The translations under genes and the position numbers were made by a program. A DNA stretch of 38,336 nt from contig OMQX01000005.1 of assembly GCA_900313335.1 (NCBI GenBank), forward strand, positions 1-38,336. The letters run 5' to 3'. Source of the stretch: an uncultured Prevotellaceae bacterium (GTDB lineage: Bacteria > Bacteroidota > Bacteroidia > Bacteroidales > Bacteroidaceae). Below, in pieces: positions 1-16,249 of this stretch. Position 1 is the stretch's first letter. Each line of letters starts with the position of its first letter. The notes beneath the pieces were generated by a model. The model had not been told where the DNA came from and did no database searches. It was given only the letters and a program-made list of their open reading frames with translations.

Positions 1-986
1 ACGCGATACAGGGTCAGGTATTCGTGTACGTTGTTGTAGCCCTGGCTGCGCAGGCACTGGAGCATGAGCTGGCGGTTGATGCCTGTCTCCTCGCACAGGC
101 GGTCACGGTTGAACGTGTAGTCGCACCATGCTGCGCGGTGGTTCTGCATCCAGTGCTGTATGCGGTGATAGCAACGGAGATTGCGCTCGTTAAAATCTTC
201 TTCCCTTCTGGTTTCGGCATCGTTTTGCGCGTTTTCATCGGTATCTTCATCCAGCATATAGCTGTCATCGTCTATGTGGGGAAGGGGCAGGGTGCGTGCC
301 ATATTGTCCAGGGTCTGGAAGACGAGGTACATATTCAGTGCCGAGAATACCCCTACGTACCAGCACAGGCCCTGGGCGCTGTAGTTGAAGCAGACATAGA
401 TATAGAGTACGGAACTGAGGCCCAGCAATGTGCAATAGCCCACCAGGTATGTGGGTATTATGGTCTTGTATGCCATGCGGTGGGGCAGACGGAATATGTT
501 GATGACATAGTAGACTCCCATGCCGAGGGCTATGATACGCATTATCAGGTCGGGAGAGAGTATGTTGTCGGCAAGCTCGGAGAACGAGTATACCTTGGTA
601 AGGCTGCCGAAGGGATAGAATGCGACGAGGGATACGACGCCCAGGATGATGATGGGTGAGGCATAGCCCCACATGCGCCCCCATTGGAGGAAACCGGGCA
701 TGGTGATGCCGAAGGTATAGATACTCTGCATGTAGCTGCCGACGACGAACATGAGCAGCATGCCGGGATGCAGGAGGCCGGGATGACCGTTTGCCACACT
801 TGCGCTGAAAGGCGTAATGATGAGCAGGATCATTGTAAAAAGGCCCATAATCCATGCCAGGCTGAGATATTGCACCTTGTATCTGGCGTAAATGGCCACT
901 ACTGCCGTGGCTACGGCGTGTGCCATAGTACAGCAGGCAAATGTAAGCATTACTATGAAATTCTGGGTCTCCACGGTCTGTATCAT
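1..986 (-). CDS. Polytopic membrane protein (about 7 hydrophobic helices) with a C-terminal AraC/XylS-type helix-turn-helix. The 3' end runs off the left edge of the window.
   Basis: The supplied ORF track lacks this gene because the frame has no stop inside the window. Hand translation of the minus strand from the ATG at 986..984 stays open down to nt 3 (about 328 codons): MIQTVETQNFIVMLTFACCTMAHAVATAVVAIYARYKVQYLSLAWIMGLFTMILLIITPF... Hydrophobic runs of 20-25 aa continue to about aa 225. An acidic linker follows (DDDSYMLDEDTDENAQNDAETRREED), then ...YTFNRDRLCEETGINRQLMLQCLRSQGYNNVHEYLTLYRV, which reads like an AraC-family HTH. The gene starts 13 nt after the stop of the 1219-aa gene on the same strand. 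Confidence 0.6.
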   Translation of the reverse strand, partial: MIQTVETQNFIVMLTFACCTMAHAVATAVVAIYARYKVQYLSLAWIMGLFTMILLIITPFSASVANGHPGLLHPGMLLMFVVGSYMQSIYTFGITMPGFLQWGRMWGYASPIIILGVVSLVAFYPFGSLTKVYSFSELADNILSPDLIMRIIALGMGVYYVINIFRLPHRMAYKTIIPTYLVGYCTLLGLSSVLYIYVCFNYSAQGLCWYVGVFSALNMYLVFQTLDNMARTLPLPHIDDDSYMLDEDTDENAQNDAETRREEDFNERNLRCYHRIQHWMQNHRAAWCDYTFNRDRLCEETGINRQLMLQCLRSQGYNNVHEYLTLYR

Positions 987-999
987 GTTTCTTGGGTAA

Positions 1000-3900
1000 T
1001 TAATTTCCTGCCATGATGGCCAGTATCGTGGTCACGTCACCGATCTCTATCTCGCCGTTTTTATTTGCATCGGCTGCCTTTGTATCGTAGAAACCGGTAT
1101 CGTCGGGTGTGGCCATCAGGGTCAGTACGGATGTAATGTCTCCGATTTCCACCTCGCCATTGCCGTTGGCGTCACCTACGAGGTAGGCATCCTTGTCTGT
1201 GCCTACAACGACCTTGATGGTCTGACCAAGTGATTCCTGCATGTCGATGTCCAATTCGCAATAGAGGCGTCCGGCATATATCTTGCCAACGTTCAGGTCG
1301 ACGGGGATGTCGCCGAGCCACGGACCAAACCATTCGTCGGTGGAGATGCCTTCCTTGTCGCCTGCGGCAATGGTTACGGTCTTCTTTATCTTGAAGGTGG
1401 TGACACCGTCCTCGTTGATCATTGTGATGCCCGACAGTACGATTGTGCCTATAGGCATGGCCTCGCCATCGATGATGAGCTGGAAGTTGGGCAGTTCGAA
1501 ATCGAATGTGCCGTCGCCGTTTTCACGGGTATATACGGTGGATTCCTCGGGCTCGGAGGCTTCCTGATTGATTGTTACGGCTATCATCTCGGTAAACTCG
1601 GTGCTGACGGCCGAGGCGTCCTTGAAGCTTATGACGTAGGTGTTGTCCAGATTGTAACCGCTGGTGACGATGGTCAGGACATTGGCCTTGCGGTTGAATG
1701 ACAGCTGGGTCTTCTGTGTGTCCTGGTTGGTGGAATAGGTCAGGAGGCTGGCATTGTAGTATTTGTCAACGGTGCTTGCGTTGAGGATGTCCTCGCCGTC
1801 GAACATCAATGTAGTGAGTCCCGGTGCCGGCTTGTGGTACTGGATGGTGTATTGTATGGGGGCATAGCCGTAGTTGATGCCTTCCTCCTGGCTGAGTGTA
1901 ACGTGCATCTGCCACTGTACGGAGTCGAACTTGCATTCGTATACGCCATATCCTGCAGTCTCGACTGCAGGTATAATCTCTTCCTTCCAGAAGACGTCGG
2001 ACATGTCGATGGTGTTGGAAGAAGAGGGTGTATATGTCTTGTCGTCATAGGTATAGCTGAGCATCTTCATCTCGGGTGCTGGCTTGGCAAGGAGCTGGAT
2101 ATTGCTGATTGAAATCCACTGGTGGATGATTCCCTCGCACGAACCGCCTATCTCGACAGTGACATTGTCATTGGGGTTCATTACGTCGAATGCCAAATAG
2201 CGGTATTCCCATCCGCGTCCGACGTTGTTGTTGGCATAAGTGCCGTCGGAACGGAAATTGACGTTGCCGTTCACGTCGACGCCGCGACCTGTATCACCCT
2301 TGGATGGGAAGGATACGCTCTGGTCACCTACCTTGATGTATGACTGGGCATACTGGCTGGCGCGTGCGGTGGCCTTGACCATGTAGTGGCCGGCAGGGAG
2401 CTTGACAGTCTGACGGGCACTTGATGTCCATGGGCTGGATGATTCCCAGTAGTTGACAGGCGAGGCTGACTGCTCGTAGTACGGAGTCATGGTGCCGTCC
2501 CAGTGGTGTCCGCCGGTTGTATTCTTGGACATGTTGGTATTCCAGTATGTGGAGTTGGTCAGGTCGGTTGAACCGAGCAAAGACGTGCGGTCTTCGGTAA
2601 AGCCTTTGTCCACGAAGTTGAACTGGGCTGCGCGTACGGTAGCGAGGAGGTCGCTGAGGACTGTCTTGTTGGTGGCGTTCTTGTTCATAACCTGGCGATA
2701 CGAGGTGATGTCCATACCCATCTGCTGGGCACGTGTCAGCTCGTCGTACAGCTCGATGCGGAGATTGCGGCAGTCAACGGCATTGCAGTCAAAGAACTGC
2801 CATTTTGCAAGGTCGTTGCGTGCATCACCAGAGCCATATGGGTCCAGTTTGTTGGCTCCGTCTGCACCACTTGCTGCATTTTCGCTCCAGAACAGGAATG
2901 CCTGATACGAACGATCTACAAACCATGCTCTCCAAGTTGCCGTCTTGGAAATGATATATCCGTCAACTGACTGCTGGATATCCAGCTCTGTAGCAGAGGT
3001 GCTGTTTACACTGTAGGACACACTGGTCGGTGCCGTAACGACGATATTGTAATTAATGGTAATGTTGAAATACCTGCCGTTGGTGCTCTGTATGTAGTTA
3101 TTGTCGGTTACGGTCCATTTTGTGATGTCAACGCCTTTGCCGCTGGAAAGGGTATTGTTGTCCAGTACATACATGTCGTGGTATTTGTTCCGGATGTAGT
3201 ACTGCTTGTTCTTCTCCATCTTGACGGGCTCGATGACCTCATCACGGGGATCGGGCATTTGGCCGAGTCCGAACTGGTATGTATATACGCGGTTGAAGAT
3301 GTCGTAACCGTCTGCTGCCTGGGCAGTAACGGTCAGCAGGAGCGTGCCCTCGTCAAACGAGCGCACGAGGGTGGCGTCCTCGTTGCCAATGAGGACAAAA
3401 TCTGACTCGCTATACAGGTCGGTCGTGCTGAAGGCATCGACGTTGACGGACTCGCCATTCCATGTTGCTGACACGATAGCGGGGGCTGGCACGTGGAACT
3501 GTATGATACGTGTAATCTTGTTATCGAACATGTCTGTCATTACAACGGTAAGCTGACAGGTCTTGATATCGAATGATTCGGTATGTGAGCGGACGTCATC
3601 GTTGAACGTAAGTTGCATGCGTTCCTTATTATATATAACGTCTTGGGAATTGGTGAGCAGATCGACTCCGTCCTGAGTGGCACTGGTGATATCGGCATTG
3701 GGCTTGGTGAACGGTATCGTGTATGAATGGAAATTGCTTGCGTCCTCGCTGAAATTCTCACCGCGGACGGTAACCGTCAATGCGTATGCGTTGTAGTCGA
3801 AGCTGTATGACCATGTTGCTGCGCGGCCGGTCATCTTGACGTCGGTAAGCTTGTCGGGGTCAAAGAGGCAGTCCATCTTTGTCCTGCCCAGTATGTCCTG

Positions 3901-4647
3901 GCCGTCATAGGTAATACTCTTTGCCTCGCTGTAGTACAGCATCTCGAGGTCGTCAACATAGAGGTGGTCTGACTCGGCTCCGTCGCCTGCGATTGCACTG
4001 GTGCTTATATTTACCAGGACATAATAGGGATCACGGGACGAATCCTTGACGTCAAAGGGGACGGTATATTGGGTCCAGGTGCTGTTGCTGGGGGTGGACT
4101 TGATGCTGCTGGCTACAACGGTTGCTGTGATGTTGTTGGCCTGGGGGTCCTGGAAATAGCCCTTGGTAGTGAGGGTGATGCTGACCTTGCCGTCGTTCTT
4201 GCCGTTGAACTTGACCCAATAGCGTGCTGCATCGGGGTGACCGGAGAAGCGCATTGACTGGTCGGTACGGCTCTCGTTGATGTAGTTGTAGTTTCCGCTT
4301 GCATCGGTGGCGGTTGTAGAACCCATGTTGACGCAGCCTGTGGTAAGGTTGCCCTGGGCGATGATACCGAACATTACATTACGTGCCTTGATCTCGGCGC
4401 TGTAATGTCCCTTGGTACCTGGGCGTGTATCGGTGCTCTTCCATAGCTGTACTGCGCCTGCCATTCCCTTCAGGGAACCTGTTCCGTCCAGGAAGGAGCT
4501 CCAAAGCAGGGGTTCCTCGCCGGTCTTGCCGCTGTATGAGACTTCTTCCCACTGCTCGAAATCGGAGTTGCCCAACTGATACTGGGCGTTAGCCGATATT
4601 GCAACGGCTGCCATCAGGAAGGTATATAAAAATCTTTTCATCTTCAT
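1000..4647 (-). CDS. Secreted multidomain surface protein: N-terminal PCMD-like module, Ig-like repeats, ricin-like and CBM-like insert, calycin-like beta-barrel, C-terminal type I dockerin
   Basis: The track ORF is 1000..4659, but its first codon is TTG. The ATG codons at 4647 and 4641 give MKMKRFLYTFLMAAVAISANA|QYQ, a typical signal peptide. The N-terminal module NSDFEQWEEV...GNLTTGCVNMG...NYNYINE...FSGHPDA is paralogous to that of the neighbouring 969-aa protein. The module DFELPNFQLIIDGEAMPIGTIVL...WFGPWLGDIPVDL matches the calycin-like module of that protein. The tail carries two EF-hand-like dockerin repeats. Confidence 0.85.
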   Translation of the reverse strand: MKMKRFLYTFLMAAVAISANAQYQLGNSDFEQWEEVSYSGKTGEEPLLWSSFLDGTGSLKGMAGAVQLWKSTDTRPGTKGHYSAEIKARNVMFGIIAQGNLTTGCVNMGSTTATDASGNYNYINESRTDQSMRFSGHPDAARYWVKFNGKNDGKVSITLTTKGYFQDPQANNITATVVASSIKSTPSNSTWTQYTVPFDVKDSSRDPYYVLVNISTSAIAGDGAESDHLYVDDLEMLYYSEAKSITYDGQDILGRTKMDCLFDPDKLTDVKMTGRAATWSYSFDYNAYALTVTVRGENFSEDASNFHSYTIPFTKPNADITSATQDGVDLLTNSQDVIYNKERMQLTFNDDVRSHTESFDIKTCQLTVVMTDMFDNKITRIIQFHVPAPAIVSATWNGESVNVDAFSTTDLYSESDFVLIGNEDATLVRSFDEGTLLLTVTAQAADGYDIFNRVYTYQFGLGQMPDPRDEVIEPVKMEKNKQYYIRNKYHDMYVLDNNTLSSGKGVDITKWTVTDNNYIQSTNGRYFNITINYNIVVTAPTSVSYSVNSTSATELDIQQSVDGYIISKTATWRAWFVDRSYQAFLFWSENAASGADGANKLDPYGSGDARNDLAKWQFFDCNAVDCRNLRIELYDELTRAQQMGMDITSYRQVMNKNATNKTVLSDLLATVRAAQFNFVDKGFTEDRTSLLGSTDLTNSTYWNTNMSKNTTGGHHWDGTMTPYYEQSASPVNYWESSSPWTSSARQTVKLPAGHYMVKATARASQYAQSYIKVGDQSVSFPSKGDTGRGVDVNGNVNFRSDGTYANNNVGRGWEYRYLAFDVMNPNDNVTVEIGGSCEGIIHQWISISNIQLLAKPAPEMKMLSYTYDDKTYTPSSSNTIDMSDVFWKEEIIPAVETAGYGVYECKFDSVQWQMHVTLSQEEGINYGYAPIQYTIQYHKPAPGLTTLMFDGEDILNASTVDKYYNASLLTYSTNQDTQKTQLSFNRKANVLTIVTSGYNLDNTYVISFKDASAVSTEFTEMIAVTINQEASEPEESTVYTRENGDGTFDFELPNFQLIIDGEAMPIGTIVLSGITMINEDGVTTFKIKKTVTIAAGDKEGISTDEWFGPWLGDIPVDLNVGKIYAGRLYCELDIDMQESLGQTIKVVVGTDKDAYLVGDANGNGEVEIGDITSVLTLMATPDDTGFYDTKAADANKNGEIEIGDVTTILAIMAGN
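1003..1173 (-). other. Type I dockerin module (two Ca-binding loop plus helix repeats) at the C-terminus of the 1219-aa protein
   Basis: The two repeats are DANGNGEVEIGDITSVLTLM and DANKNGEIEIGDVTTILAIM, with the first Asp residues 34 residues apart. Each has the D-x-N-x-N/D-G-x-x-x-x-x-D 12-residue loop followed by a hydrophobic helix. This is the canonical dockerin duplicated-segment pattern. Confidence 0.75.
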
Positions 4648-4700
4648 CTCGTAGTTCAATCTATTATCCTAAATATAATACCTGTTTCTATCAAATGTCA

Positions 4701-7610
4701 TCAGAGTTTCAGCACGAGGCGGCCGTTTACGACGTGTATGCCCTTGGCTGACGGGTTGACGCGCTGGCCCTGAAGGTTGTAGCAGGAGCCGACGGTTGTA
4801 TTGGACGATGGTCTTGCTGTCACGAAATCGGTAACCCCGGTAAAGTCCTCGCCGTCCAGATTATCAAAGTATGCCTTGTTGCCTACCTGCACGTCGATAT
4901 CCTGACCACCGGCATGCAGTTTGATAGTTACGAACAGCTGCTCGTTGTTGATCTTGCCTGCTGTGGGCAAGGGGAGTGTTCCCAGCAGGGGACCCATCCA
5001 CATTGCATCGGCGGGGTCTGTGCCTGCGGCAATGTCAAGATTGCCGTTGTATTCGAATGTGGAATAGTGCTGACCTGTGTCTGTAAGACCTACATTCTCG
5101 ATCAATATATTGCCGACGTACATGGGATCTGAATCTCCGGACTTGAGAATAAAGTTATAGAGTGCCAGGTCTATAGTATTGTCGTCATGGAAGGTGATCT
5201 GCACCTCGCTGTCCATAGGGCCGTTCATCTTGCCGTCTACGCCGACGTAAAGGTCCTCGCTGTATGTCTTTGTTCCTGATGTGGGCATCATCCATGCGGG
5301 TTTGGCAAGCTTCCAGATGCTGTACGGTACCTGTACCTTGTACTTTGGATCTGTGTATGTGCCTGACATCTTGACCTCGTCGTCGGTAGCATCCCATGTA
5401 ATGGCATAGGTGCGGTTGATTTCTTCGTCGGCAACGCTTTCGTCGGAAGAATGCTTGATTACTACGTAGCACAGGTTAACGTATGTCGCATCATAGGGGA
5501 TTACCTCGGGATTGTAGGTTACGGAACCGGGCTTGATCCAATAGTCGATCTTTGCGGCCGGCTTTGCGGGCTTGAGGATGTAATACTGGACCTCTACCTT
5601 GTATTCGGAATCGTAGTATGTTCCTGTTATGGATTTCTCTTCGTTGGTCTGGAACCAGTCGAGGGTGGTTGAACGTGGTATCTCGACGTCCTCGACATCT
5701 GCCTTGGAGGAGTGCTTGAGTATCACATAGGACATCTGGACGGATGTTGCATCGTATGTGAGGGTGGATGGATTGAATGTAACGGAGTTGGGCTTGAGCT
5801 TGTATGTAATTATCGGTTCTGCATCCTTGCCCAGCTCGTTGCCTACCTCGACCTGAACCATCTGACCCATTGTGGACATGAGGTTGATGAAGATCTGGAC
5901 GTGAAGCTCCTGGTCGTTCATCTCGCCAGTCATCTGCATGGGGATAACGCCCAAATAGGGGCCCATCCAGAACTTTTCGGGGTCGCTGCCCTCGGGGATT
6001 GTTATATTTCCGGTGAACGAGAACTTGCCGGCTGCTATGGTACGGTCCCATTCCTGTGAAATATTCTGGACTTTGATATTGCCGACAGGTATCTCGTCGC
6101 CGTTGCTGATGAGTATAAAGTCGTTCAGGGCAAAGTCTATGACACCGTCCTGGCCGTATTTTACATTAACCACACATGGCTGTGGGTCGCCCTTTTGGCC
6201 GTTGATGGTGACGGTGACATTGTCCTCGTATGTCGATACTGTTCCTGCAGAGGGCCATTCGTGTACGGGTTCGGGCTCCTCATCCTTCTCGTAAGTGGCC
6301 ATATAGGTGGCATTGGATGTTACAATCTCGACAATAGCGGGTGTCCACCCCATGAAGGTATAGCCTTCGCGTACGGGGTTTTCGGGAACGATTATCCTGT
6401 CACCTTCCTTGATCTGTGTAGTGAAGATGGTCTCTCCGTTGTAATTGAGGAATGTAACGGTGTAGTAGACGTCCTCTGGGATTATCTCCTCGTAGGTGGC
6501 AGTATATGTGGCGTCTGCCTGTGCGGGTGAGACAATATCGGGGTCCCAGCCTGTAAAGGTGTATCCCTCGCGGGCAGGTGCATTGGGGGCGACAACGGGG
6601 TCTCCTTCCTTTATGGTCTTGGTGACTATGGTCTGGCCGTCATAGGTCAGGAACGTGACGGTGTAGTATACCGTGGGTTTCCTGAACTGGTATGTGTATG
6701 TGTGCTCAGAGCTGTTGTCCTGTGCAGTAACCTTGACGGTCAGCACGTATGTAGCGGGGTTGTACTGGTGTGTGATGGTTGCGCCTGCGCCATTGGATTT
6801 CAAGCCGGAAAGGAGGCTTTCGTCGTACTCGGCATCAACAGAGATCTTCCCCAGGATGCTCTTTCCGTTATACATGATTTCCGACAGTTCGCTGTTGTAT
6901 ACCAGGGAGATATCGTCGATGTACATATAGTCGTCCTTGCTACCCTTGCCGGGGATGTTGGTCGTCGTAAACGATACGAGTGCATAGGCGGGATTGTCGT
7001 TGCCGACATAGTTGAACGGTATGGTGTATTCGGTCCATTGGTCGTTGCTGTCTGCAAACTGTGCGGCACTGCCGACCATCTGGCCGGTGATGTCGTCGCC
7101 TGTGGCAATGGGGAACTGGAAACGGCCGGCGCTGTGCAGATATGCTGCAATCTGTCCTTTGTTTACGCCGTGGAAGCGTACCCAGACCTTCATTGCGTCG
7201 GGACGTCCGGTAAACTGCATGGCCTGACCGCTGGTGATATTGGTGTAATTGTAGTTGACGGCGGTGTTGCCCTGATTGAGATGGCCCATCTCGACACAGC
7301 CGGTCGTCAGATTACCTGCCAGGTTCAGGGTCAGATAGTTCTTGCCCTTGACGAGGACACTGGTTGTACCTGCAGAGCCAGTGCGTGCCTCGCCCTTCTC
7401 CAAGGGTGCTGCGTACTTTACGGCATTGGCCTTGACCGCACCTGTACCTGTCAGATACGAGTGCCATGCAATGGGTGCTATTTGTGTCTTATCGTTATAT
7501 GTGACATCCTCCCACTGTTCGAAATCTGAATTCTGGAACTGGAAGATGCCCTGAGCGCCGGCTGTGGCAACCAGCATACCTGCAACAAACAATGTAAATA
7601 ATTTCTTCAT
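4701..7610 (-). CDS. Secreted multidomain surface protein: PCMD-like N-terminal module, 2 Listeria-Bacteroides (Flg_new-like) repeats, 2 calycin-like beta-barrels, 2 extra ~85-aa repeats, T9SS C-terminal sorting domain
   Basis: 969-aa ORF with signal peptide MKKLFTLFVAGMLVATAGAQG. The module NSDFEQWEDV...GNLTTGCVEMG...NYNYTN...FTGRPDA is paralogous to the 1219-aa protein. The sequence YYTVTF(L)xYxGxTI...EGYTFxGW occurs twice. The sequence DFALNDFILISNGDEIPVGNI...FWMGPYLGVIP and its variant DLALYNFILKSGDSDPMYVGNI...MWMGPLLGTLP are the two calycin-like modules. The tail ...CYNLQGQRVNPSAKGIHVVNGRLVLKL resembles a T9SS type A C-terminal domain. Confidence 0.88.
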   Translation of the reverse strand: MKKLFTLFVAGMLVATAGAQGIFQFQNSDFEQWEDVTYNDKTQIAPIAWHSYLTGTGAVKANAVKYAAPLEKGEARTGSAGTTSVLVKGKNYLTLNLAGNLTTGCVEMGHLNQGNTAVNYNYTNITSGQAMQFTGRPDAMKVWVRFHGVNKGQIAAYLHSAGRFQFPIATGDDITGQMVGSAAQFADSNDQWTEYTIPFNYVGNDNPAYALVSFTTTNIPGKGSKDDYMYIDDISLVYNSELSEIMYNGKSILGKISVDAEYDESLLSGLKSNGAGATITHQYNPATYVLTVKVTAQDNSSEHTYTYQFRKPTVYYTVTFLTYDGQTIVTKTIKEGDPVVAPNAPAREGYTFTGWDPDIVSPAQADATYTATYEEIIPEDVYYTVTFLNYNGETIFTTQIKEGDRIIVPENPVREGYTFMGWTPAIVEIVTSNATYMATYEKDEEPEPVHEWPSAGTVSTYEDNVTVTINGQKGDPQPCVVNVKYGQDGVIDFALNDFILISNGDEIPVGNIKVQNISQEWDRTIAAGKFSFTGNITIPEGSDPEKFWMGPYLGVIPMQMTGEMNDQELHVQIFINLMSTMGQMVQVEVGNELGKDAEPIITYKLKPNSVTFNPSTLTYDATSVQMSYVILKHSSKADVEDVEIPRSTTLDWFQTNEEKSITGTYYDSEYKVEVQYYILKPAKPAAKIDYWIKPGSVTYNPEVIPYDATYVNLCYVVIKHSSDESVADEEINRTYAITWDATDDEVKMSGTYTDPKYKVQVPYSIWKLAKPAWMMPTSGTKTYSEDLYVGVDGKMNGPMDSEVQITFHDDNTIDLALYNFILKSGDSDPMYVGNILIENVGLTDTGQHYSTFEYNGNLDIAAGTDPADAMWMGPLLGTLPLPTAGKINNEQLFVTIKLHAGGQDIDVQVGNKAYFDNLDGEDFTGVTDFVTARPSSNTTVGSCYNLQGQRVNPSAKGIHVVNGRLVLKL
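4704..4838 (-). other. Putative T9SS C-terminal sorting domain (short, type A-like)
   Basis: The last ~45 aa are FTGVTDFVTARPSSNTTVGSCYNLQGQRVNPSAKGIHVVNGRLVLKL. The pattern Y-x-L-x-G-x-R-V ... KG-I-x-(I/V)-V-N-G-x-x-V-x-K at the extreme C-terminus is characteristic of Bacteroidota Por-secretion tails. Confidence 0.6.
5295..5813 (-). repeat. Two tandem ~85-aa repeats of unknown fold between the two calycin-like modules of the 969-aa gene
   Basis: The copies are ITYKLKPNSVTFNPSTLTYDATSVQMSYVILKHSSKADVEDVEI...ITGTYYDSEYKVEVQYYILKPAKPA and IDYWIKPGSVTYNPEVIPYDATYVNLCYVVIKHSSDESVADEEI...MSGTYTDPKYKVQVPYSIWKLAKPA. Confidence 0.7.
6288..6671 (-). repeat. Two tandem ~62-aa Listeria-Bacteroides-type repeats inside the 969-aa gene
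   Basis: The copies are VYYTVTFLTYDGQTIVTKTIKEGDPVVAPNAPAREGYTFTGWDPDIV...ATYTATYE and VYYTVTFLNYNGETIFTTQIKEGDRIIVPENPVREGYTFMGWTPAIV...ATYMATYE. They are roughly 60 percent identical by eye. Confidence 0.7.
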
Positions 7611-7665
7611 CTGAAATCCGATCTGTCTTTTTACCTTATTTTTTTCCTATAATTCCCTACATGTA

Positions 7666-8514
7666 TCAGAAGCAATATGCTCCGCCTATTGTTCCAAATA
7701 TTGGGAACATCTTGAAACGTACTGTGTCATAATCGCCGGGGAAGATGCTGGTGAAGCCCCAGTCAAGCTTACCGAATGCTCCGATGTGCTTGGTTATCTT
7801 CCAGTCGAAAAGGAGCTCGACACCTGCAGTGCAGAAGACCATATCCTTGCCCAGGCTGGTTGTGGCTTCCTTCTCGGGACCGAATATGTTCTTGTCCTGA
7901 GTAGGGCCGGAACCGTCACCGTGGTCAACGCGGAGATATGCGTCCTCGGCACGCTCTGCCTCGGGGAATCCGTGTACCTTGGCATCGAAATTCTTGGACA
8001 GGAACATCTGCAAATAAGGACCCATGCTCACGTGCCAGCGAGGGCTCATGCGCAGGGTTGCCATTACGGGTATTGTCAATGTCCAGTTGTTGATGCTGGT
8101 CTCGTTGATACCGGTAAACCATCCTTTCTGTTCCTCGCCATCAAGCACTATCTTGGTATAATAGTTCTTTACTTCGGCTCTGGTCGAGAAGCCCTGGTTG
8201 GCGAGTGTGACGCCTATCTTCAGGCCCCAACGGCGGTTGAACATCTTGTAGCCCTCGACACCGACGCTGATACCTCCCTGGGGGCTGAATTTCTGAATCT
8301 GCCGGATTTCACGGGGAATGGGAAGCGGGGAATAACCTCCGATGCTGTATCCCATCTTAAGTTGGAAACCGAAGCCTGTACGGCTGGTAGGTCCCCAGCG
8401 TTCCCATTTGTCTGCAACGGGAATTGGTGTGTCAACATCGGTTTCCTGAGCCCATACCGGCATGGTAGCCAAGCATACAACGGCTACCGCAATATATTTG
8501 ATTATCCTGTTCAT
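7666..8514 (-). CDS. Small outer-membrane beta-barrel protein (OMP_b-brl_2 / porin-family-like)
   Basis: The track ORF is 7666..8517, but its first codon is TTG. The ATG at 8514..8512 overlaps the upstream TGA by 1 nt (TGATG). The signal peptide is MNRIIKYIAVAVVCLATMPVWA|QE. Alternating amphipathic strands are visible (FGFQLKMGYSIGG, WGLKIGVTLA, WTLTIPVMATLRMSPRWHVSMGPYLQMFL, AGVELLFDWKI, FGKLDWGF). The C-terminus is aromatic (...GGAYCF). Confidence 0.8.
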   Translation of the reverse strand: MNRIIKYIAVAVVCLATMPVWAQETDVDTPIPVADKWERWGPTSRTGFGFQLKMGYSIGGYSPLPIPREIRQIQKFSPQGGISVGVEGYKMFNRRWGLKIGVTLANQGFSTRAEVKNYYTKIVLDGEEQKGWFTGINETSINNWTLTIPVMATLRMSPRWHVSMGPYLQMFLSKNFDAKVHGFPEAERAEDAYLRVDHGDGSGPTQDKNIFGPEKEATTSLGKDMVFCTAGVELLFDWKITKHIGAFGKLDWGFTSIFPGDYDTVRFKMFPIFGTIGGAYCF

Positions 8515-11500
8515 CAATCCTCGTAAAAAATGGTTATACTTTCGATGTATAGTTTGGAACCTTCGGCTCCTTCCATATTATGTCCATTCCAGCTGCTGGT
8601 GGCTCCGATGACCATGCTGTAGCCTCCGTCTGCCAATGCTGCGGCATCGACATTGTATGTCTCTATCTTGAACTCGAGATCGGTCCATGTGGTGCCTACC
8701 TGCTTGCTTGAGCCGTGGAGTCTGACATAACCTGCGATATTGCCATGGGTAAACAGATCGGTGGCAGAGAGTACGAACTGGCCTCCCATATTACGATAGA
8801 ACACGCAGTATATGTCTGGAGAATCGGTCTCGCCTGCAGTGTAGGTATTGCCCTTGTAGTATTTCTCGCCTGGAATATACTTGGCACGGACCTTCATCTT
8901 TGTTGGTTTGTGCTTGAAGGGTGCTCCGTAGTGTGCCAGTGACTGGAAATATGACAGACCTCCACTCATAGCCTGCTGGAGGGAGTATGAATCCATGGTT
9001 CCGTTGAACAGCATGCCGGGAACAGTACGCATCTTCAGCATGGATGCGTATGTACTGTTGTTGGCTGCGGTCTCGAGCAGCAACACGCTGGTACCGTCTT
9101 TCCTGGCAGGACACTCGGATGCTGATGCTCCGGTACGGAGGACCTTGAACATGGGGTTGGTGGTCACCCATGAAGAAGCGAGGTTTGCATCGGTCCATGT
9201 GTAATATCCGCTGGATGTGTTTCCATTCTCGAAGCTGAATACGTAGCGGGGTTCCTGACCGATATCTGCCCTTACCTTGTATGTAAGTGTATTCTTGCCG
9301 AAACGGCTCTTGACAGTAAATGTATGGAACTCGCCATCCGAAAGATTTACCTTCTGGCCGGATGTAAAGACCTCCTCGTTCTCGTCATAGATTGTCGAGA
9401 ACTTGGTTGCGTGGATGGTGAGGGGTACTGCGGTAACATCGGCATTCCACCTGACTGGGAATACGACTTCGTTCGCCTCGTTTGCGGTCTGGACGCTGTC
9501 GGTTGCCTGCTTGAATATCTCAAGCGGATTGTTTACGACAATGCTGAATGACGATACGGTGAATTCGGCCTGTTCGGCATACTTGACCTTGACCTTGTAT
9601 GTATTTGTCTGGGTACCGTCCTGGCTGAAGACCTTGAACTGATGGAACTGTCCGTCGGAAAGGTCTACATTGCTTCCGGAAACGAAACTGTTGCCACCTG
9701 CATCCTGGACAGTTGCCCACTTGCTGACGTTCAGGGTCAAAGGTACTGCGGTGACAACGGCATCCCATCTTACGGGGAATATGATTTCGTTGGACGCTGA
9801 CGGGGTCTGTACGCTGTCACCGACATTGTTGAATATTGTCAGCGGCGATGCTATCTTGATACATGCGGAAAGGATTGTCGGAACGGGCTGATCCTCGAAC
9901 TTGGCTCGTACGGTATATATGATTTCCAGTTTGCCCTCGGCATCACGGGCCTTGAGCTTCAATACCTTGTCCTTGGAAAGGTCTACCTTGGTTCCGGAAA
10001 CGAATACCTTGCCAGCCTCGTCATAGACAGTATAGCCCTGACCCGGATGAAGGGTCAATGGTACGGATGTCATGTCGGCATCCCATTTTACAGGGAATAC
10101 TATCTCGGTCGTACCCTCTTCCATATACTGGATGCTGTCACCTTCCTCGGGGAACAAGGCCAGGGGATCGTCGACAATAATACTTGCGGATGCTATGGGG
10201 AGCGTGGTATCGCCCTCATCCTCGGGGTCCTCGAATACGACCTTGACATTGTCCATATAGAGCTTGGAATCCAGGGCTCCTTCGAAATATCCGCCGCGCC
10301 AGCTGCTGGTAGAGCCTATCACAATGCTATAGCCGCGGTTTCTGAGAAGGATGGGGTCTATCACGTTCTCATGTCCCGTCTGGAAGAAATCATAATTGAC
10401 AGGTATCGAGACATGCTGCCATTCGTTCGTAATACCATGTATGGGGCTGTTGGTAAGAACCGGCTCCGGAATATGGCGCTGTTCCTCCTCGTTCCAGACC
10501 ATATTATAGTTGTGTTTCAGGCGCGCAACACCCTTTATATGCTTGTTGGTGAGGACATCATCGCCGTCAAGGACCACTGCATTACCATTCTCGTCAGCAT
10601 TACGATATATTATGCAATACAGATCGGGTTCGTCCACGACGCCTGTAATCTCGTTCTCGTTTGAATCCTGAAACTTGGGGCCGGGCTCGTATCTCAGGTC
10701 TGCCTCGATACGTATCGGCTTGTGCGGACAGGGAACTCCCATACGCGTTGCCTTGCGGGCATCGTTCAATGCCTTGCTGGAATCGAACAGGCCATTGAAC
10801 ATACTGCCTGCTGCCAGGGGGATATGTACCATCTGTCCGAAGGAACCTGTACTGCGTGTATGTAGCTCGACACAATCGCTACCGTCCATTCCGCCGTTGA
10901 AGACAGGTATTGTCGGATACTCGTCGGGCTGTGCACTGCCTCGGCTCAATATGAATCCGGGGTTGCCGTTCTTCCAGACAGGATCACCTGCACGGAACAG
11001 GTTCTTCGTGATAACAGGGTCTGTTTCGGTCCAAACATAATAGCCGGGGTTAGTGGATGTCTTGCCCTGGATTGTATAGTTTCCATTGAACGTAATCAGC
11101 ATCTCGGTCAACACCGTATATGCCGGCTGATGTTCCATGGAGACCTCGTAAGTCTTGCTCCATTCGCCGCTTTCACAACGGATGACGAATTTCTGCACCC
11201 GCTCGTTGGTGAAATTTACGAGACGGCCATTCTCGAACGGCACCTCTTCACCGTCGATGACAATAAATGCAGTAGAACCCTTGGAGGTCTTGATGTAAAC
11301 AGGATAGCTTCCCAAGGCAGCATTATGCTTTACCGAAAAGACATGCTTAGTCTCTATGGGAAGAAAACGGTACGTTGCATATGATTCTTGGTCGAATATA
11401 TCCAACGGGTTTTCAAGTTGTACGGAAATCTCTTCGATGTCACATTCTATCTCCAGCGGCGCCTCTGCTATACAGGAAACCAGGAGAACAGTTGAGGACA

Positions 11501-11540
11501 ACGCCAGGAGCAATGATAATATCAGCAACTTTATCTTCAT
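8514..11540 (-). CDS. Large lipoprotein with two PCMD-like domains flanking three tandem Ig-like repeats
   Basis: 1008-aa ORF with lipobox MKIKLLILSLLLALSSTVLLVS|C. Two copies of a long module lie at about aa 140-437 and 765-1008. Copy 1 reads W.NGNPGF...YPT...AGSMFNGLFD...PDLYCIIYRN...GSTSSWRGGYFEGALDSKLYMD. Copy 2 reads ...PGMLFNGTMD...PDIYCVFYRN...GATSSWNGHNMEGAEGSKLYIE. This resembles the Pfam PCMD family. Confidence 0.85.
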   Translation of the reverse strand: MKIKLLILSLLLALSSTVLLVSCIAEAPLEIECDIEEISVQLENPLDIFDQESYATYRFLPIETKHVFSVKHNAALGSYPVYIKTSKGSTAFIVIDGEEVPFENGRLVNFTNERVQKFVIRCESGEWSKTYEVSMEHQPAYTVLTEMLITFNGNYTIQGKTSTNPGYYVWTETDPVITKNLFRAGDPVWKNGNPGFILSRGSAQPDEYPTIPVFNGGMDGSDCVELHTRSTGSFGQMVHIPLAAGSMFNGLFDSSKALNDARKATRMGVPCPHKPIRIEADLRYEPGPKFQDSNENEITGVVDEPDLYCIIYRNADENGNAVVLDGDDVLTNKHIKGVARLKHNYNMVWNEEEQRHIPEPVLTNSPIHGITNEWQHVSIPVNYDFFQTGHENVIDPILLRNRGYSIVIGSTSSWRGGYFEGALDSKLYMDNVKVVFEDPEDEGDTTLPIASASIIVDDPLALFPEEGDSIQYMEEGTTEIVFPVKWDADMTSVPLTLHPGQGYTVYDEAGKVFVSGTKVDLSKDKVLKLKARDAEGKLEIIYTVRAKFEDQPVPTILSACIKIASPLTIFNNVGDSVQTPSASNEIIFPVRWDAVVTAVPLTLNVSKWATVQDAGGNSFVSGSNVDLSDGQFHQFKVFSQDGTQTNTYKVKVKYAEQAEFTVSSFSIVVNNPLEIFKQATDSVQTANEANEVVFPVRWNADVTAVPLTIHATKFSTIYDENEEVFTSGQKVNLSDGEFHTFTVKSRFGKNTLTYKVRADIGQEPRYVFSFENGNTSSGYYTWTDANLASSWVTTNPMFKVLRTGASASECPARKDGTSVLLLETAANNSTYASMLKMRTVPGMLFNGTMDSYSLQQAMSGGLSYFQSLAHYGAPFKHKPTKMKVRAKYIPGEKYYKGNTYTAGETDSPDIYCVFYRNMGGQFVLSATDLFTHGNIAGYVRLHGSSKQVGTTWTDLEFKIETYNVDAAALADGGYSMVIGATSSWNGHNMEGAEGSKLYIESITIFYED
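9249..10202 (-). repeat. Three tandem ~105-aa repeats (Ig-like, unknown family) inside the lipoprotein gene
   Basis: R1 is ...IIVDDPLALFPEEGDSIQYMEEGTTEIVFPVKWDADMTSVPLTLHPG...VFVSGTKVDLS...IYTVRAKF. R2 is ...IKIASPLTIFNNVGDSVQTPSASNEIIFPVRWDAVVTAVPLTLNVS...SFVSGSNVDLSDGQFHQFKV...TYKVKVKY. R3 is ...IVVNNPLEIFKQATDSVQTANEANEVVFPVRWNADVTAVPLTIHAT...VFTSGQKVNLSDGEFHTFTV...TYKVRADI. A more diverged related segment lies at about aa 25-135. Confidence 0.75.
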
Positions 11541-11590
11541 ATTTAGCCTTTTGTTTCTACGTTATTTTAGCTGATTTCTTAATTTGGGGG

Positions 11591-11598
11591 CAAAATTA
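11591..11598 (-). promoter_or_regulatory. Bacteroidota -7 box (TAATTTTG) for the surface-protein operon
   Basis: The minus strand reads GTGTAATTTTGCCCCC, which matches TAnnTTTG. It lies about 50 nt upstream of the lipoprotein ATG at 11540. None of the three internal gaps of the operon contains a match. Confidence 0.55.
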
Positions 11599-11625
11599 CA
11601 CTTTTTCCTTCGCGTGTGCACATAG

Positions 11626-11647
11626 AAAAGGATAAAATAATCCTTTT
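11626..11647 (-). terminator. Weak AT-rich hairpin downstream of the PPIase gene
   Basis: AAAAGGAT-(6 nt)-ATCCTTTT forms an 8-bp perfect stem about 30 nt after the PPIase stop. There is no clean U-tract beyond the stem itself. Confidence 0.3.
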
Positions 11648-11676
11648 TACCATAATAACGCCAAAAAGGGGTGGTT

Positions 11677-12411
11677 TCAACGGGAACGGCCAGTTTTGCC
11701 GTATTGTTCGACAGAAGCCTTGACAATGCGCACATCCTGTATTGGACGGTCATTGGAATCGGTCTTTTCCTGCTGTATCCTGTCAACAACATCAAGCCCG
11801 TCTATCACCTCGCCGAACACGGTATATTCTCCGTCCAGATGGGGTGTTCCGCCTATCATCTGATAGTCGTCCGTCATGAAATGATTGTATTCATAGCCTT
11901 TTTCTTCCCAGGAAGATCGCACCTTGTTGAGAGAGGCTGGTCCCATCTTCCTGCCCCAGACGATATAGAACTGACAGCCGCTGCTGCGGCGTTCGGGATT
12001 GACATCATCGCCTTCACGGGCAGCAGCTACCATGCCACGCTTGTGATACAGGTCCGGCAGGCAGAATTCGGGCGGCAAGGTATAGCCTAGGTCACCGTCG
12101 CCCAAAAGGACTCCCGACGGAGCTGTCCGGCTGGATGGGTCACCGCCCTGAATCATAAAATCCTTGATAACGCGATGGAACAAGGTCGCATCATAAAACC
12201 CCTGGGACACAAGTTTCAGGAAATTGTCCCTATGAACGGGGGTCTCGTCCATAAGTGCTATGCGGATCGTGCCCATAGTTGTTTCGAGACGGACAACGCT
12301 CCTACGCTCCTTGCGCCTGGCATCGACTGATGAACATACCAGAAACACTGCCGTCAGGACAAGAGCGAACCTTAAACAAAAACCGGGTAGGAATCTTTTG
12401 GTGATAAACAT
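11677..12411 (-). CDS. Cyclophilin-type peptidyl-prolyl cis-trans isomerase, secreted or periplasmic
   Basis: 244-aa ORF with an N-terminal hydrophobic signal. The motifs FHRVIKDFMIQGGDP, SSGCQFYIV and YTVFGEVIDGLDVVDRI are typical of cyclophilin PPIases. Confidence 0.9.
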   Translation of the reverse strand: MFITKRFLPGFCLRFALVLTAVFLVCSSVDARRKERRSVVRLETTMGTIRIALMDETPVHRDNFLKLVSQGFYDATLFHRVIKDFMIQGGDPSSRTAPSGVLLGDGDLGYTLPPEFCLPDLYHKRGMVAAAREGDDVNPERRSSGCQFYIVWGRKMGPASLNKVRSSWEEKGYEYNHFMTDDYQMIGGTPHLDGEYTVFGEVIDGLDVVDRIQQEKTDSNDRPIQDVRIVKASVEQYGKTGRSR

Positions 12412-14494: not shown

Positions 14495-16249
14495 ATGAAA
14501 GCTGACAAAAACAATACTATAGGGCGTTTCCGCATTATAGTCATCCTGATGGCTTTGGTGGGTGTGTATATCCTGAGCACAGCCTTGTACACCATGGTCA
14601 GCAAGCGTGAGTACTGGACAGAAGTGAGCAAGATGTTCGTAAAGGAGAATGTTCCAATACAGGCAACCCGTGGCAACATATACGACTGCAACGGTAAACT
14701 GATGGCGGGTTCCGTTCCCGAATATCGACTGTATATGGATTACGTTGTAATCGACAAGAACGAAAAGGCGCGTGTCAAGGCTCAGGCATACCGCGATTCG
14801 GTGTTTGAACATCAACTGGACAGCATTTGCGACGGACTTGCCAGGATATTCCCTGACAAGACATCCGAATGGTTCCGCACACGCCTGGAGGAAGGCAAGC
14901 GCAGGGGAAGCCATGCATGGAGGATATATCCGCGCCATGCAACATATATCCAGTACAAGGAGTGCAAGAAACTGCCGCTGCTGAGGGATGCCTCGTTCAA
15001 GGGCGGATTCTATGCTGACGAGACCTTGCAGCGCAAACATCCATACGGATCACTGGCATGCCGTACGCTGGGCGACCTGTGGCGTGACTCGGACGCTGCA
15101 AAGAACGGCATTGAGCTGAGCTATGACAGCATCCTAAGAGGAAAGAACGGCCTGAGCCACCGCATGAAGGTCAGGAACCACCGTGTAAGCATCATTGACC
15201 GTGAGCCGGTACAGGGACACGACCTGATGACGACAATAGACGTGGATATACAGGACTTTGCCGAAAAGGCTATGGTTGCAAAACTGAAGGAACCTCTGGT
15301 AAACGGTGAGATCGGCATTGCCATCGTGATGGAATGTGCTACGGGCGACATAAAGGCAATCGTAAACATGCACCGTGCCGAGGATGGTGAATACTACGAG
15401 ATGAAGAACAGCGCGGTCAGCGACCTGATGGAACCGGGATCTACATTCAAGACGGCCAGTATAATGGTTGCCCTGGATGACGGCAAGATAACACTGGACA
15501 ATACTGTTGACTGTAATCACGGACAGTTCCAGATGCATGGCCGTGTGATGAAAGACCACAACTGGCATCGTGGCGGATATGGTACCCTGACAGTATCACA
15601 GATACTGGAGCAGAGTAGTAATATCGGTGTCAGCCGCATCATCGACAATGCTTATCATGACAATCCAAAGGCTTACGTGGACGGATTGCTGAGAATAGGA
15701 GTAGGCATACCTTTGAACCTTCCATTTGCCGGTAAGGGAGAACCTATCATCCCACGTCCAGACAGCCAGATAAGATATTGGAGCAAAACCGACCTGCCGT
15801 GGATGAGCATAGGATATGTTACGATGCTGCCACCTATCAGTACTCTGACATTCTACAATGCTATTGCCAACAATGGCACAATGGTGCGCCCCAGATTCGT
15901 AAAAGCCGAGCTGGTAAACGGACAGGTGGTTCGCGAATTCCCGACCGAGGTCATTAAACAGCAGATCTGCAAACCGTCGACACTGAAGGACATACAGTTC
16001 TGCCTGCACAATGTAGTAAAGCTCGGCTTAGGTCATAAGGCGGGTAACGGCAGCAAGCTGTTTGAGGTTAGCGGAAAAACTGGAACGGCGCAGTTCTCCG
16101 AGAACGGAAGCTATGCATCGCACAAATACATGGTCAGCTTCTGTGGCTTCTACCCAAGCGAAGCTCCACGCTACAGTTGTATCGTATGTATCGTGAAGCG
16201 TGGCCTGCCTGCTTCGGGTGGCGGACAGTGCGGACCTGTCGGCCCGTGA
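14495..16249 (+). CDS. ftsI: Penicillin-binding protein FtsI (PBP dimerisation plus transpeptidase domains). The frame ends prematurely before the PASTA domain.
   Basis: 584 aa with an N-terminal TM anchor. The transpeptidase motifs STFK (EPGSTFKTASIM), SSN (EQSSNIGVS) and KTG (SGKTGTAQ) are all present. The ORF stops at ...GLPASGGGQCGPVGP*, and the expected C-terminal domain continues in another frame (next feature). Confidence 0.9.
   Translation: MKADKNNTIGRFRIIVILMALVGVYILSTALYTMVSKREYWTEVSKMFVKENVPIQATRGNIYDCNGKLMAGSVPEYRLYMDYVVIDKNEKARVKAQAYRDSVFEHQLDSICDGLARIFPDKTSEWFRTRLEEGKRRGSHAWRIYPRHATYIQYKECKKLPLLRDASFKGGFYADETLQRKHPYGSLACRTLGDLWRDSDAAKNGIELSYDSILRGKNGLSHRMKVRNHRVSIIDREPVQGHDLMTTIDVDIQDFAEKAMVAKLKEPLVNGEIGIAIVMECATGDIKAIVNMHRAEDGEYYEMKNSAVSDLMEPGSTFKTASIMVALDDGKITLDNTVDCNHGQFQMHGRVMKDHNWHRGGYGTLTVSQILEQSSNIGVSRIIDNAYHDNPKAYVDGLLRIGVGIPLNLPFAGKGEPIIPRPDSQIRYWSKTDLPWMSIGYVTMLPPISTLTFYNAIANNGTMVRPRFVKAELVNGQVVREFPTEVIKQQICKPSTLKDIQFCLHNVVKLGLGHKAGNGSKLFEVSGKTGTAQFSENGSYASHKYMVSFCGFYPSEAPRYSCIVCIVKRGLPASGGGQCGPVGP

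Follow-up and report, generated by a model that had tools for sequence, protein, structure and literature searches.

An enlarged copy of a conserved PCMD lipoprotein-barrel surface cassette in an uncultured Prevotellaceae bacterium

Introduction

Contig OMQX01000005.1 (GenBank assembly GCA_900313335.1) of an uncultured Prevotellaceae bacterium begins with a run of five minus-strand genes, three of which encode large exported proteins. This locus raises the question of what such a group of genes builds at the cell surface. A prediction made from the letters of the DNA alone, here called the original prediction, described it as a five-gene operon for an outer-surface assembly with its own regulator. 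The window is the whole stretch of DNA that was analyzed, 38,336 nucleotides long. The genes are numbered in the order in which they would be transcribed: gene 1 encodes a lipoprotein with PCMD domains, gene 2 a small outer-membrane barrel, genes 3 and 4 secreted multi-domain proteins, and gene 5 an AraC-like membrane protein.

Positions 1000..11598 of the window, which cover genes 1 to 4, are an enlarged copy of a conserved surface cassette of Prevotella-like Bacteroidales (GTDB Bacteroidaceae: rumen lineages, Paraprevotella and Segatella). The reading of its function that is favored here, and to which we give about an even chance of being correct, is that a lipoprotein-barrel base, tailed proteins exported through type IX secretion (T9SS) and a dockerin protein together form a variable surface layer that binds glycans or particles.

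A conserved lipoprotein-barrel cassette

Conservation of the locus was followed in two scans, one of genomes anchored on gene 5 (80 species-level loci) and one of metagenomes anchored on the barrel gene (80 loci), for about 160 loci in total. Both sets were annotated with hidden Markov models (HMMs) built from the window's own modules. A word-index homologue search with the barrel gave 12 matches, and pattern scans together with an exhaustive profile search were used instead. The barrel subfamily is discrete, with 407 clusters at 50% identity (E<=1e-10) among 1.84 billion representatives.

By a strict gap rule, 52 of 58 assessable metagenome loci have the PCMD lipoprotein gene immediately upstream of the barrel gene and on its strand, and inspection by eye shows the same in the others. 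The gaps within the pair range from -4 to 60 nt and 13 pairs overlap; in the window, the ATG of gene 2 overlaps the stop codon of gene 1 by 1 nt. Directly after the barrel gene, 37 of 61 loci encode a calycin protein or a protein with the N-module, the PCMD-like N-terminal module of genes 3 and 4. These downstream secreted proteins usually number one to three per locus and are composed of calycin-like and PCMD-like modules. Most end in a T9SS-like tail and fewer in a dockerin, and their size ranges from about 200 aa (signal peptide, one calycin domain and tail) to 1582 aa with five calycin domains. Segatella possesses a minimal triad between rpsA and gdhA, consisting of a PCMD protein of 390 aa, a barrel of 250 aa and a calycin protein of 202 aa. 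Another version of the cassette is present in Paraprevotella clara, and the triad also occurs in an unrelated context, beside chromate transporter and GH77 genes (locus L090). Because the pairing of PCMD lipoprotein and barrel is constant across loci, the conserved unit is this pair, usually with calycin-type secreted proteins, and not a set of five genes. The expectation that gene order would be kept in related genomes held, and the five-gene extent originally given to the unit did not.

Some loci carry an extra membrane protein of ~380 aa between the calycin proteins (L105:10276-11442, L038:13620-14789, L092, L093 and L103), which is absent from the window. In the one copy that was scanned, from L105, an Lnb_N periplasmic domain is accompanied by a weak match to 5TMH_Lnb that stays below the threshold.

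Within the window, the five open reading frames (ORFs) all lie on the minus strand at the predicted positions (Table 1), with intergenic gaps of -1, 55, 53 and 13 nt, also as predicted.

Table 1. Positions of the five genes, their modules and related features. Coordinates are those of the window unless another locus is named; aa, amino acids; Ig-like, immunoglobulin-like.
Feature	Residues	Coordinates	Strand	Length or basis
Candidate Bacteroidota -7 promoter box TAATTTTG		11591..11598	-	pattern search; putative promoter
Gene 1		8514..11540	-	1008 aa
Gene 1 signal peptide and lipobox LVSC	Cys23		-	sequence
Gene 1 Ig-like domain	24-124		-
Gene 1 PCMD-1	125-438	10227..11168	-	window-derived HMMs
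Gene 1 three ~106-aa Ig-like repeats	447-764	9249..10202	-	repeat alignment
Gene 1 PCMD-2	748-1008	8517..9299	-	window-derived HMMs
Gene 2		7666..8514	-	282 aa counted from ATG
Gene 3		4701..7610	-	969 aa
Gene 3 signal peptide and PCMD-like N-module	N-module 19-242	6885..7556	-
Gene 3 Ig-like region, then two Flg_new/InlB B-repeats	about 315-445		-	Pfam for Flg_new
Gene 3 calycin-like 1	458-592	5835..6239	-
Gene 3 two ~86-aa repeats	601-772		-	repeat alignment
Gene 3 calycin-like 2	780-911	4878..5273	-
Gene 3 short T9SS-like C-terminal tail	921-968	4707..4850	-	alignment with homologue tails
Gene 4		1000..4647	-	1215 aa from ATG; 1219 aa from upstream TTG
Gene 4 signal peptide and PCMD-like N-module	N-module 21-242	3922..4587	-
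Gene 4 Ig-like modules	between N-module and middle region		-
Gene 4 middle region, about 550 aa	466-1012	1612..3252	-	no family match
Gene 4 calycin-like domain	1015-1151	1195..1605	-
Gene 4 dockerin	1150-1215	1003..1200	-
Gene 5		1..986	-	3' end cut by window edge; full length 382 aa
Gene 4 orthologue with tail in place of dockerin		L013:6405-9992
Gene 4 orthologue with tail in place of dockerin		L017:6334-9912
Gene 4 orthologue with tail in place of dockerin		L018:6338-9925

The candidate promoter box of the cassette, TAATTTTG, has its 5' base 58 nt upstream of the gene 1 start codon. It had been taken for the sole TAnnTTTG sequence on the minus strand of this region; a pattern search of 1..11598 found four (938, 9738, 11032 and 11591), and across the whole window the pattern is not enriched (25 found, 17 expected). 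The companion claim that none of the four internal gaps holds an exact box was correct, and the gap before gene 4 contains a one-mismatch version, GACATTTG. Among non-redundant relative loci, the box occurs within 150 nt upstream of 49 of 71 PCMD genes, mostly 28-55 nt before the start codon, and in just 9 of 92 internal gaps. These counts argue for one main promoter before the lipoprotein gene and make the predicted single promoter plausible, and genes 1 to 4 are probably read from it. No intrinsic terminator or terminator-like hairpin was found in any internal gap by a scan that is uninformative for a Bacteroidota genome, and a sigma-70 promoter scan is equally uninformative here.

The PCMD lipoprotein

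Gene 1 encodes a member of the PCMD family (PF13201), which it matches over two stretches with 284.5 bits (cut-off 28, E=1e-84). The product, named 'PCMD domain-containing protein' by NCBI, is homologous to PDB entries 3HBZ, 4HET, 3S30 and 4JRL, with E values of 6e-34 to 4e-28 by phmmer and of 1e-60 to 1e-71 when a profile is used. The protein is a tandem doubling of the usual ~390-aa lipoprotein composed of one Ig-like domain and one PCMD domain.

The family consensus at the mature N-terminus is the lipobox Cys followed by I-x-(D/A)-E-P-x-N-x-E-C-D, with acidic residues at +4/+5 in most members. Two acidic residues fall within +2..+5 of the Cys in 28 of 45 distinct family N-termini, and acidic residues at this place fit the surface-export signal of Bacteroidota lipoproteins. 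The window's own protein has only one acidic residue after its lipobox (CIAEA).

The closest relatives with a structure are the BT2081-type PCMD lipoproteins of Bacteroides, which have in common with gene 1 the Ig-like N-terminal domain, the PCMD jelly-roll and a lipoprotein-type signal. They differ in that gene 1 is doubled (Ig-PCMD-Ig-Ig-Ig-PCMD). BT2081 consists of an Ig domain and a jelly-roll bearing a conserved carbohydrate-type pocket, and carbohydrate binding or hydrolysis by PCMD has so far been proposed from this structure (PMC2954218). BT2081 and several of its paralogues sit in SusC-type polysaccharide loci (PMC2954218), whereas the gene 1 subfamily is always paired with the small barrel and lies outside such loci. 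No activity is known for either group.

The small outer-membrane barrel

Gene 2 belongs to PF13568 (OMP_b-brl_2), with 62.8 bits against a cut-off of 27 (E=5.5e-17). AlphaFold2 models it (pLDDT 78) as a small barrel that has long hairpins and, in one loop, a conserved insertion. The top Foldseek matches in the PDB are 8-stranded barrels, namely the OmpA transmembrane domain, OprG, OmpW, Ail and OmpX, with modest TM-scores. A barrel of this kind is too small for proteins or polysaccharides to pass through. The realistic roles are those of an anchoring partner or a small-molecule channel.

The coupling of a surface lipoprotein gene to an outer-membrane barrel gene, with more surface binding proteins nearby, resembles SusC/SusD loci. 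The cassette differs from these loci in that its barrel, about 260 aa, is OmpA/OmpW-like and not a 22-strand TonB-dependent transporter, and in that it has no SusD fold, hydrolase or hybrid sensor. A Pfam scan and the locus annotation agree with the original prediction that no SusC/SusD pair, glycoside hydrolase or fimbrial gene is present. The SusC-like TonB-dependent transporter and SusD-like gene of a polysaccharide utilization locus are absent from 1..12411 and from the homologous loci.

The secreted multi-domain proteins

Genes 3 and 4, named 'InlB B-repeat-containing' and 'hypothetical' by NCBI, have the N-module in common at 38% identity over 332 aa. This module falls below the PCMD gathering score of 28 (22.4 bits for gene 3, no match for gene 4) and aligns with PCMD in hhalign at 92% probability (E=5.6e-7, 188 columns), a profile alignment that marks it as a remote PCMD relative. 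Both proteins are members of the Calycin_like family PF13944 (cut-off 30): gene 3 matches over two stretches with 101.4 bits (E=5e-29), and gene 4 over one stretch with 67 bits (E=2.6e-18). The calycin profile also matches, at E=6e-6, the PDB entry 3RWX, whose depositors gave it as a hypothetical bacterial outer membrane protein, and only F43 and G55 are invariant in the calycin alignment. The middle region of gene 4 (residues 466-1012) has no significant match in Pfam, in an alignment-wide Pfam scan, or in sequence and profile searches of the PDB.

The recurrence of three module types in the large proteins, proposed at the outset, was confirmed far beyond chance: gene 1 has two PCMD domains, gene 3 has two calycin domains and gene 4 has one, and the N-module is shared by genes 3 and 4. 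The suspected PCMD and calycin family resemblance also proved right, with both scoring well above the Pfam thresholds. A self-BLAST for internal repeats found none, and the repeats were seen by alignment instead. A literature search on PCMD, PF13201 and PF13944 found almost nothing functional.

One reading of these domains assigns them to uptake. A small hydrophobic ligand, such as a lipid, quinone, porphyrin or bile compound, would be captured by the calycin domains and passed to an OmpW/OprG-like barrel that the PCMD lipoprotein would cap. OprG and OmpW, which are small-molecule hydrophobic channels, are among the best fold matches of the barrel, the calycin fold class typically binds small ligands, and the tight coupling of lipoprotein and barrel recalls the lid-and-barrel logic of SusD/SusC. 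One paper, by a figure legend, shows a calycin-like gene beside heme-uptake genes in some Porphyromonas species (PMC12106395). However, OmpW and OprG give low TM-scores (0.34-0.49) and are matched no better than OmpA, Ail and OmpX, the calycin alignment lacks conserved His, Cys or Tyr ligand residues, and an inner-membrane transporter is not linked to the cassette. Up to five tandem calycin domains, together with Ig, Flg_new and jelly-roll modules, suggest an adhesin rather than a shuttle. Uptake of this kind is unlikely, though it has an appreciable chance.

Calycin-like domains have also been met on other surfaces. A review describes the domain as surface exposed and names surface-exposed proteins that carry it as the targets of the BSAP-4 toxin (PMC7872030). 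The cassette may also be an abundant, variable coat that has no specific ligand and is exploited as a receptor. The BSAP-4-targeted proteins of Bacteroides fragilis and PDB 3RWX have the PF13944 domain in common with the cassette, in which, unlike in the B. fragilis targets, it is repeated and fused to other modules. To our knowledge, Bacteroides lacks T9SS, so the anchoring of its calycin-like proteins must differ.

Sorting tails and dockerins

The extreme C-terminus of gene 3 and its homologues follows the pattern ..YDLxGRRV....KGIYIVNGKKV.., as seen in alignments of 17 and of 28 tails. The T9SS sorting model TIGR04183 matches 9 of the 28 homologous tails at E<=1, weakly (best E=4e-4), and no other family recurs. 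The tail of a 212-aa protein of P. clara scores 15.6 bits against the same model (cut-off 23). A profile of the tails matches the extreme C-termini of PDB 4KCA (chain A 639-682, E=2e-8) and 7JVI (chain A 799-842, E=5e-7) and does not significantly match the C-terminal domains of gingipains (E=0.3-1). Since 4KCA is an endo-arabinanase and 7JVI a beta-helix protein, the short tail type is also found outside the cassette. From these alignments we read the tail as a short, divergent T9SS type-A sorting domain. With type-A cargo such as the gingipains and P. clara 00502/00509, the cassette proteins have in common a Sec signal and a tail ending of the G-I-Y-I-V-N-G-K-K-V-x-K type. Unlike that cargo, they have a tail of about 45-50 aa that scores below the TIGR04183 cut-off and passenger domains, PCMD-like and calycin-like, without known activity.

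Gene 4 ends instead in a dockerin. The predicted dockerin on this 1219-aa protein lies above the PF00404 (Dockerin_1) threshold, although marginally here (23.2 bits, cut-off 22.9), and is clear in relatives: the dockerin-ended proteins of related cassettes score 27.7, 30.2 and 39.5 bits. Two D-x-N-x-N-G-x-x-x-x-x-D loops, DANGNGEVEIGD ... DANKNGEIEIGD, stand at its extreme C-terminus.

The two endings occur on the same protein. Orthologues of gene 4 at 86-90% identity retain the dockerin, and L011 and L012 carry it as the window does. In orthologues at 79% and 53% identity the sequence is collinear to the calycin end (..GQTI[KR]VVVG), after which a T9SS-like tail replaces the dockerin (Table 1). 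Minimal proteins likewise exist in both forms, as calycin plus tail and as calycin plus dockerin. Tail and dockerin are interchangeable on one passenger protein.

The duplicated calcium-loop segment of the gene 4 dockerin is shared with the cellulosomes of Clostridia. The cassette region differs in showing no cohesin or scaffoldin, and its dockerin carries no enzyme and is interchangeable with a T9SS-like tail in orthologues. Because the organism is Gram-negative, unlike the Clostridia with cellulosomes, the dockerin protein also needs to cross an outer membrane. According to one paper, neither cohesins nor dockerins were identified in genomes affiliated with the Bacteroidetes (PMC5831590).

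Just past the window's left edge, on the downstream side of gene 5, L002:22108-22470 encodes a conserved signal-peptide protein of ~120 aa with the C-terminus ..NWLNGLPRGSYFINNRTITIN, which resembles the final strands of the T9SS-like tail. This protein recurs beside gene 5 homologues in many loci.

The tails bear on a second reading of the barrel, as a cargo-specific T9SS helper needed for exporting or anchoring the neighboring T9SS proteins, in the manner of PorT or of the PorP/SprF-type barrels beside type-B cargo. In Flavobacterium, the type-B cargo SprB has a cognate PorP/SprF-like barrel, and the cassette is similar in that a small outer-membrane barrel gene adjoins genes for large T9SS-secreted surface proteins. 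NCBI names the gene 2 product 'PorT family protein', the protein is PF13568, and the barrel gene is directly upstream of T9SS-tailed proteins in 37 of the 61 loci. The name stems from the broad Pfam family, however, and none of the NCBIfam models matches the gene 2 protein. The barrel family is PF13568 and not PorP/SprF. The invariant partner of the barrel is the PCMD lipoprotein and not the cargo, 24 of the 61 loci having no adjacent calycin or N-module gene, and the tails look like sorting domains of type A and not of type B. The chance that the barrel is such a helper is slim.

Link to Paraprevotella clara

A cassette protein has already been observed experimentally in P. clara. Li et al. 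(2022) identified P. clara proteins freed into the supernatant by tunicamycin as candidate T9SS-secreted, O-glycan-anchored surface proteins (PMC9477747). The published primers for one of them, PROKKA_00890, map exactly inside L065:11400-13385 of P. clara YIT 11840, which encodes a 661-aa protein with N-module, calycin domain and tail and 29-32% identity to genes 3 and 4 of the window. Its level in the supernatant rose 3.5-fold (peak areas of 0.60-0.61 without and 2.10-2.14 with tunicamycin; P=2e-8, lower than that of any other entry listed) (PMC9477747). The homologue thus behaves like type-A T9SS cargo in this release assay, and a member of the cassette is therefore abundant and depends on surface glycan synthesis to be retained at the cell.

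The 00890 insertion mutant kept its degradation of trypsin, which was lost in the 00502 and 00509 mutants alone (PMC9477747). The trypsin locus 00502-00509 was rejected as the cassette, as it encodes an Omp28-related protein and none of its primers maps to the cassette. The P. clara cluster 03048-03053 was rejected as well, because it does not map there.

Gene 5 and the surroundings of the locus

Gene 5 is cut by the window edge. Its full-length product, read from contig L002, is a multi-pass protein with five to seven hydrophobic segments. The C-terminal helix-turn-helix (HTH) region spans profile positions 1-77 of 80 of HTH_18 (PF12833) and scores 22.2 bits (cut-off 33.6), and many homologues at 45-58% identity carry PF12833 on record.

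The original prediction cast this protein as the operon's own regulator, a seven-transmembrane AraC-like protein that senses a surface or envelope signal and controls the four upstream genes. A gap of 13 nt without a terminator separates genes 4 and 5, and read-through of transcription from the cassette is possible. The cassette is upstream of gene 5 and co-directional in 16 of 80 species loci, and a gene of the tailed, dockerin or PCMD type lies within 1.5 kb in 46 of the 80. However, the cassette is convergent on the other strand in 6 of the 80, including P. clara YIT 11840 and P. xylaniphila YIT 11841, and gene 5 directly follows the PPIase (peptidyl-prolyl isomerase) gene without a cassette in 11. 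The other 47 loci show no barrel cassette: another tailed or dockerin surface-protein gene is adjacent in 24 of them, and nothing is found within 1.5 kb in 23. The cassette occurs without gene 5 in Segatella and L090, and the HTH match of gene 5 is below the Pfam threshold. A five-gene operon with its own sensor-regulator is unlikely. Found with the cassette, without it or convergent to it, gene 5 is a conserved neighbor and not an obligate part. It lies where surface-protein genes come and go, and a regulatory link is possible.

In L044, L060, L073 and L087, proteins of ~2300 aa that match the window-built dockerin HMM are encoded downstream of a gene 5 homologue on the opposite strand, in convergent orientation. 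L010 (contig CACXHH010000251.1) holds the end of gene 4, together with gene 5, at 100% identity and belongs to a species-representative genome labeled 'uncultured Clostridiales bacterium RUG11260'. This label or bin looks wrong, because all relatives are Bacteroidaceae or Prevotellaceae.

Identical or near-identical copies of the locus are present on rumen metagenome contigs. One flank in these copies is the cyclophilin-type PPIase gene adjoining the dcw cell-division cluster (mraZ to ftsZ), and the other is an acetyltransferase/dGTPase/dUTPase block. The remaining window is housekeeping in content, with dcw genes, recO, gyrB, pnp and greA. In the ftsI/PBP3 gene (14495..16249), the window is 38 nt shorter at about 16240-16241 than L002, to which it is elsewhere 99.9% identical. 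The penicillin-binding protein ORF thereby ends at 584 aa instead of 680, and its last 85 residues run on in another frame. The difference is either a real frameshift or an assembly error.

A model of the surface layer

In the proposed binding layer, the PCMD lipoprotein, with its Ig-like stalk and a jelly-roll bearing a carbohydrate-type pocket, and the translationally coupled OmpA/OmpW-like barrel would form a 1:1 unit in the outer membrane. The tailed proteins would be exported by the T9SS and fixed to surface lipopolysaccharide, and the dockerin-ended gene 4 protein would be held non-covalently. Together, these proteins may form a variable and abundant binding layer, the likeliest targets of which would be glycans or plant and food particles, and which would not be an import system. 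Gene 5 would be a conserved neighbor that may or may not regulate the cassette. The carbohydrate-type pocket of PCMD (PMC2954218), the adhesin-like modular growth of the secreted proteins, and the rumen and gut habitat point to this reading.

Several observations weigh against it. The tail of gene 3 itself matches neither TIGR04183 nor Pfam (PF18962) even at E<=10, so that the originally predicted anchoring of this protein to lipopolysaccharide (A-LPS) by T9SS draws its support from the tail family, and the T9SS genes of the organism cannot be checked within the window. A structure model of gene 3 calycin 2 with the tail is unusable (pLDDT 36) because its alignment consists almost entirely of Segatella sequences. 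For the dockerin, Pfam reports no cohesin in any gene of the region, and how a dockerin-ended protein without a T9SS tail crosses the outer membrane is left unexplained. Calycin folds usually bind small hydrophobic ligands, not glycans. The layer may also not apply to the core pair, because the 24 loci without an adjacent calycin or N-module gene still hold a PCMD-barrel pair. The ligand, complex formation and co-transcription are points that we infer, and surface exposure of the cassette proteins in this organism belongs with them.

Significance

Literature searches found no paper describing the cassette, the lipoprotein-barrel coupling or the exchange of dockerin and T9SS tail. Pfam already includes all of the families and NCBI has already named the proteins, so neither a new fold nor a new principle is involved. 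There is a small chance that the PCMD lipoprotein, barrel and calycin proteins are a distinct, undescribed outer-membrane complex of T9SS-bearing Bacteroidales, in which one passenger can bear a dockerin in place of the T9SS sorting tail. If so, a dockerin-based tether would exist on a Gram-negative surface with an unrecognized receptor in the cassette, or dockerin proteins would leave the cell by riding on a T9SS-tailed partner.

The cassette is carried by abundant gut and rumen bacteria, among them the Segatella copri complex, Paraprevotella and many uncultured rumen lineages, and a function is known for none of its three protein families. Its definition provides a target for studies of surface biology, such as adhesion to fiber or mucus and roles as a phage or toxin receptor. 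P. clara is a genetically tractable model in which a mutant of one cassette member already exists. In the replacement of a T9SS tail by a dockerin, nature offers a clean experiment on the attachment of proteins to the surface of Bacteroidota.

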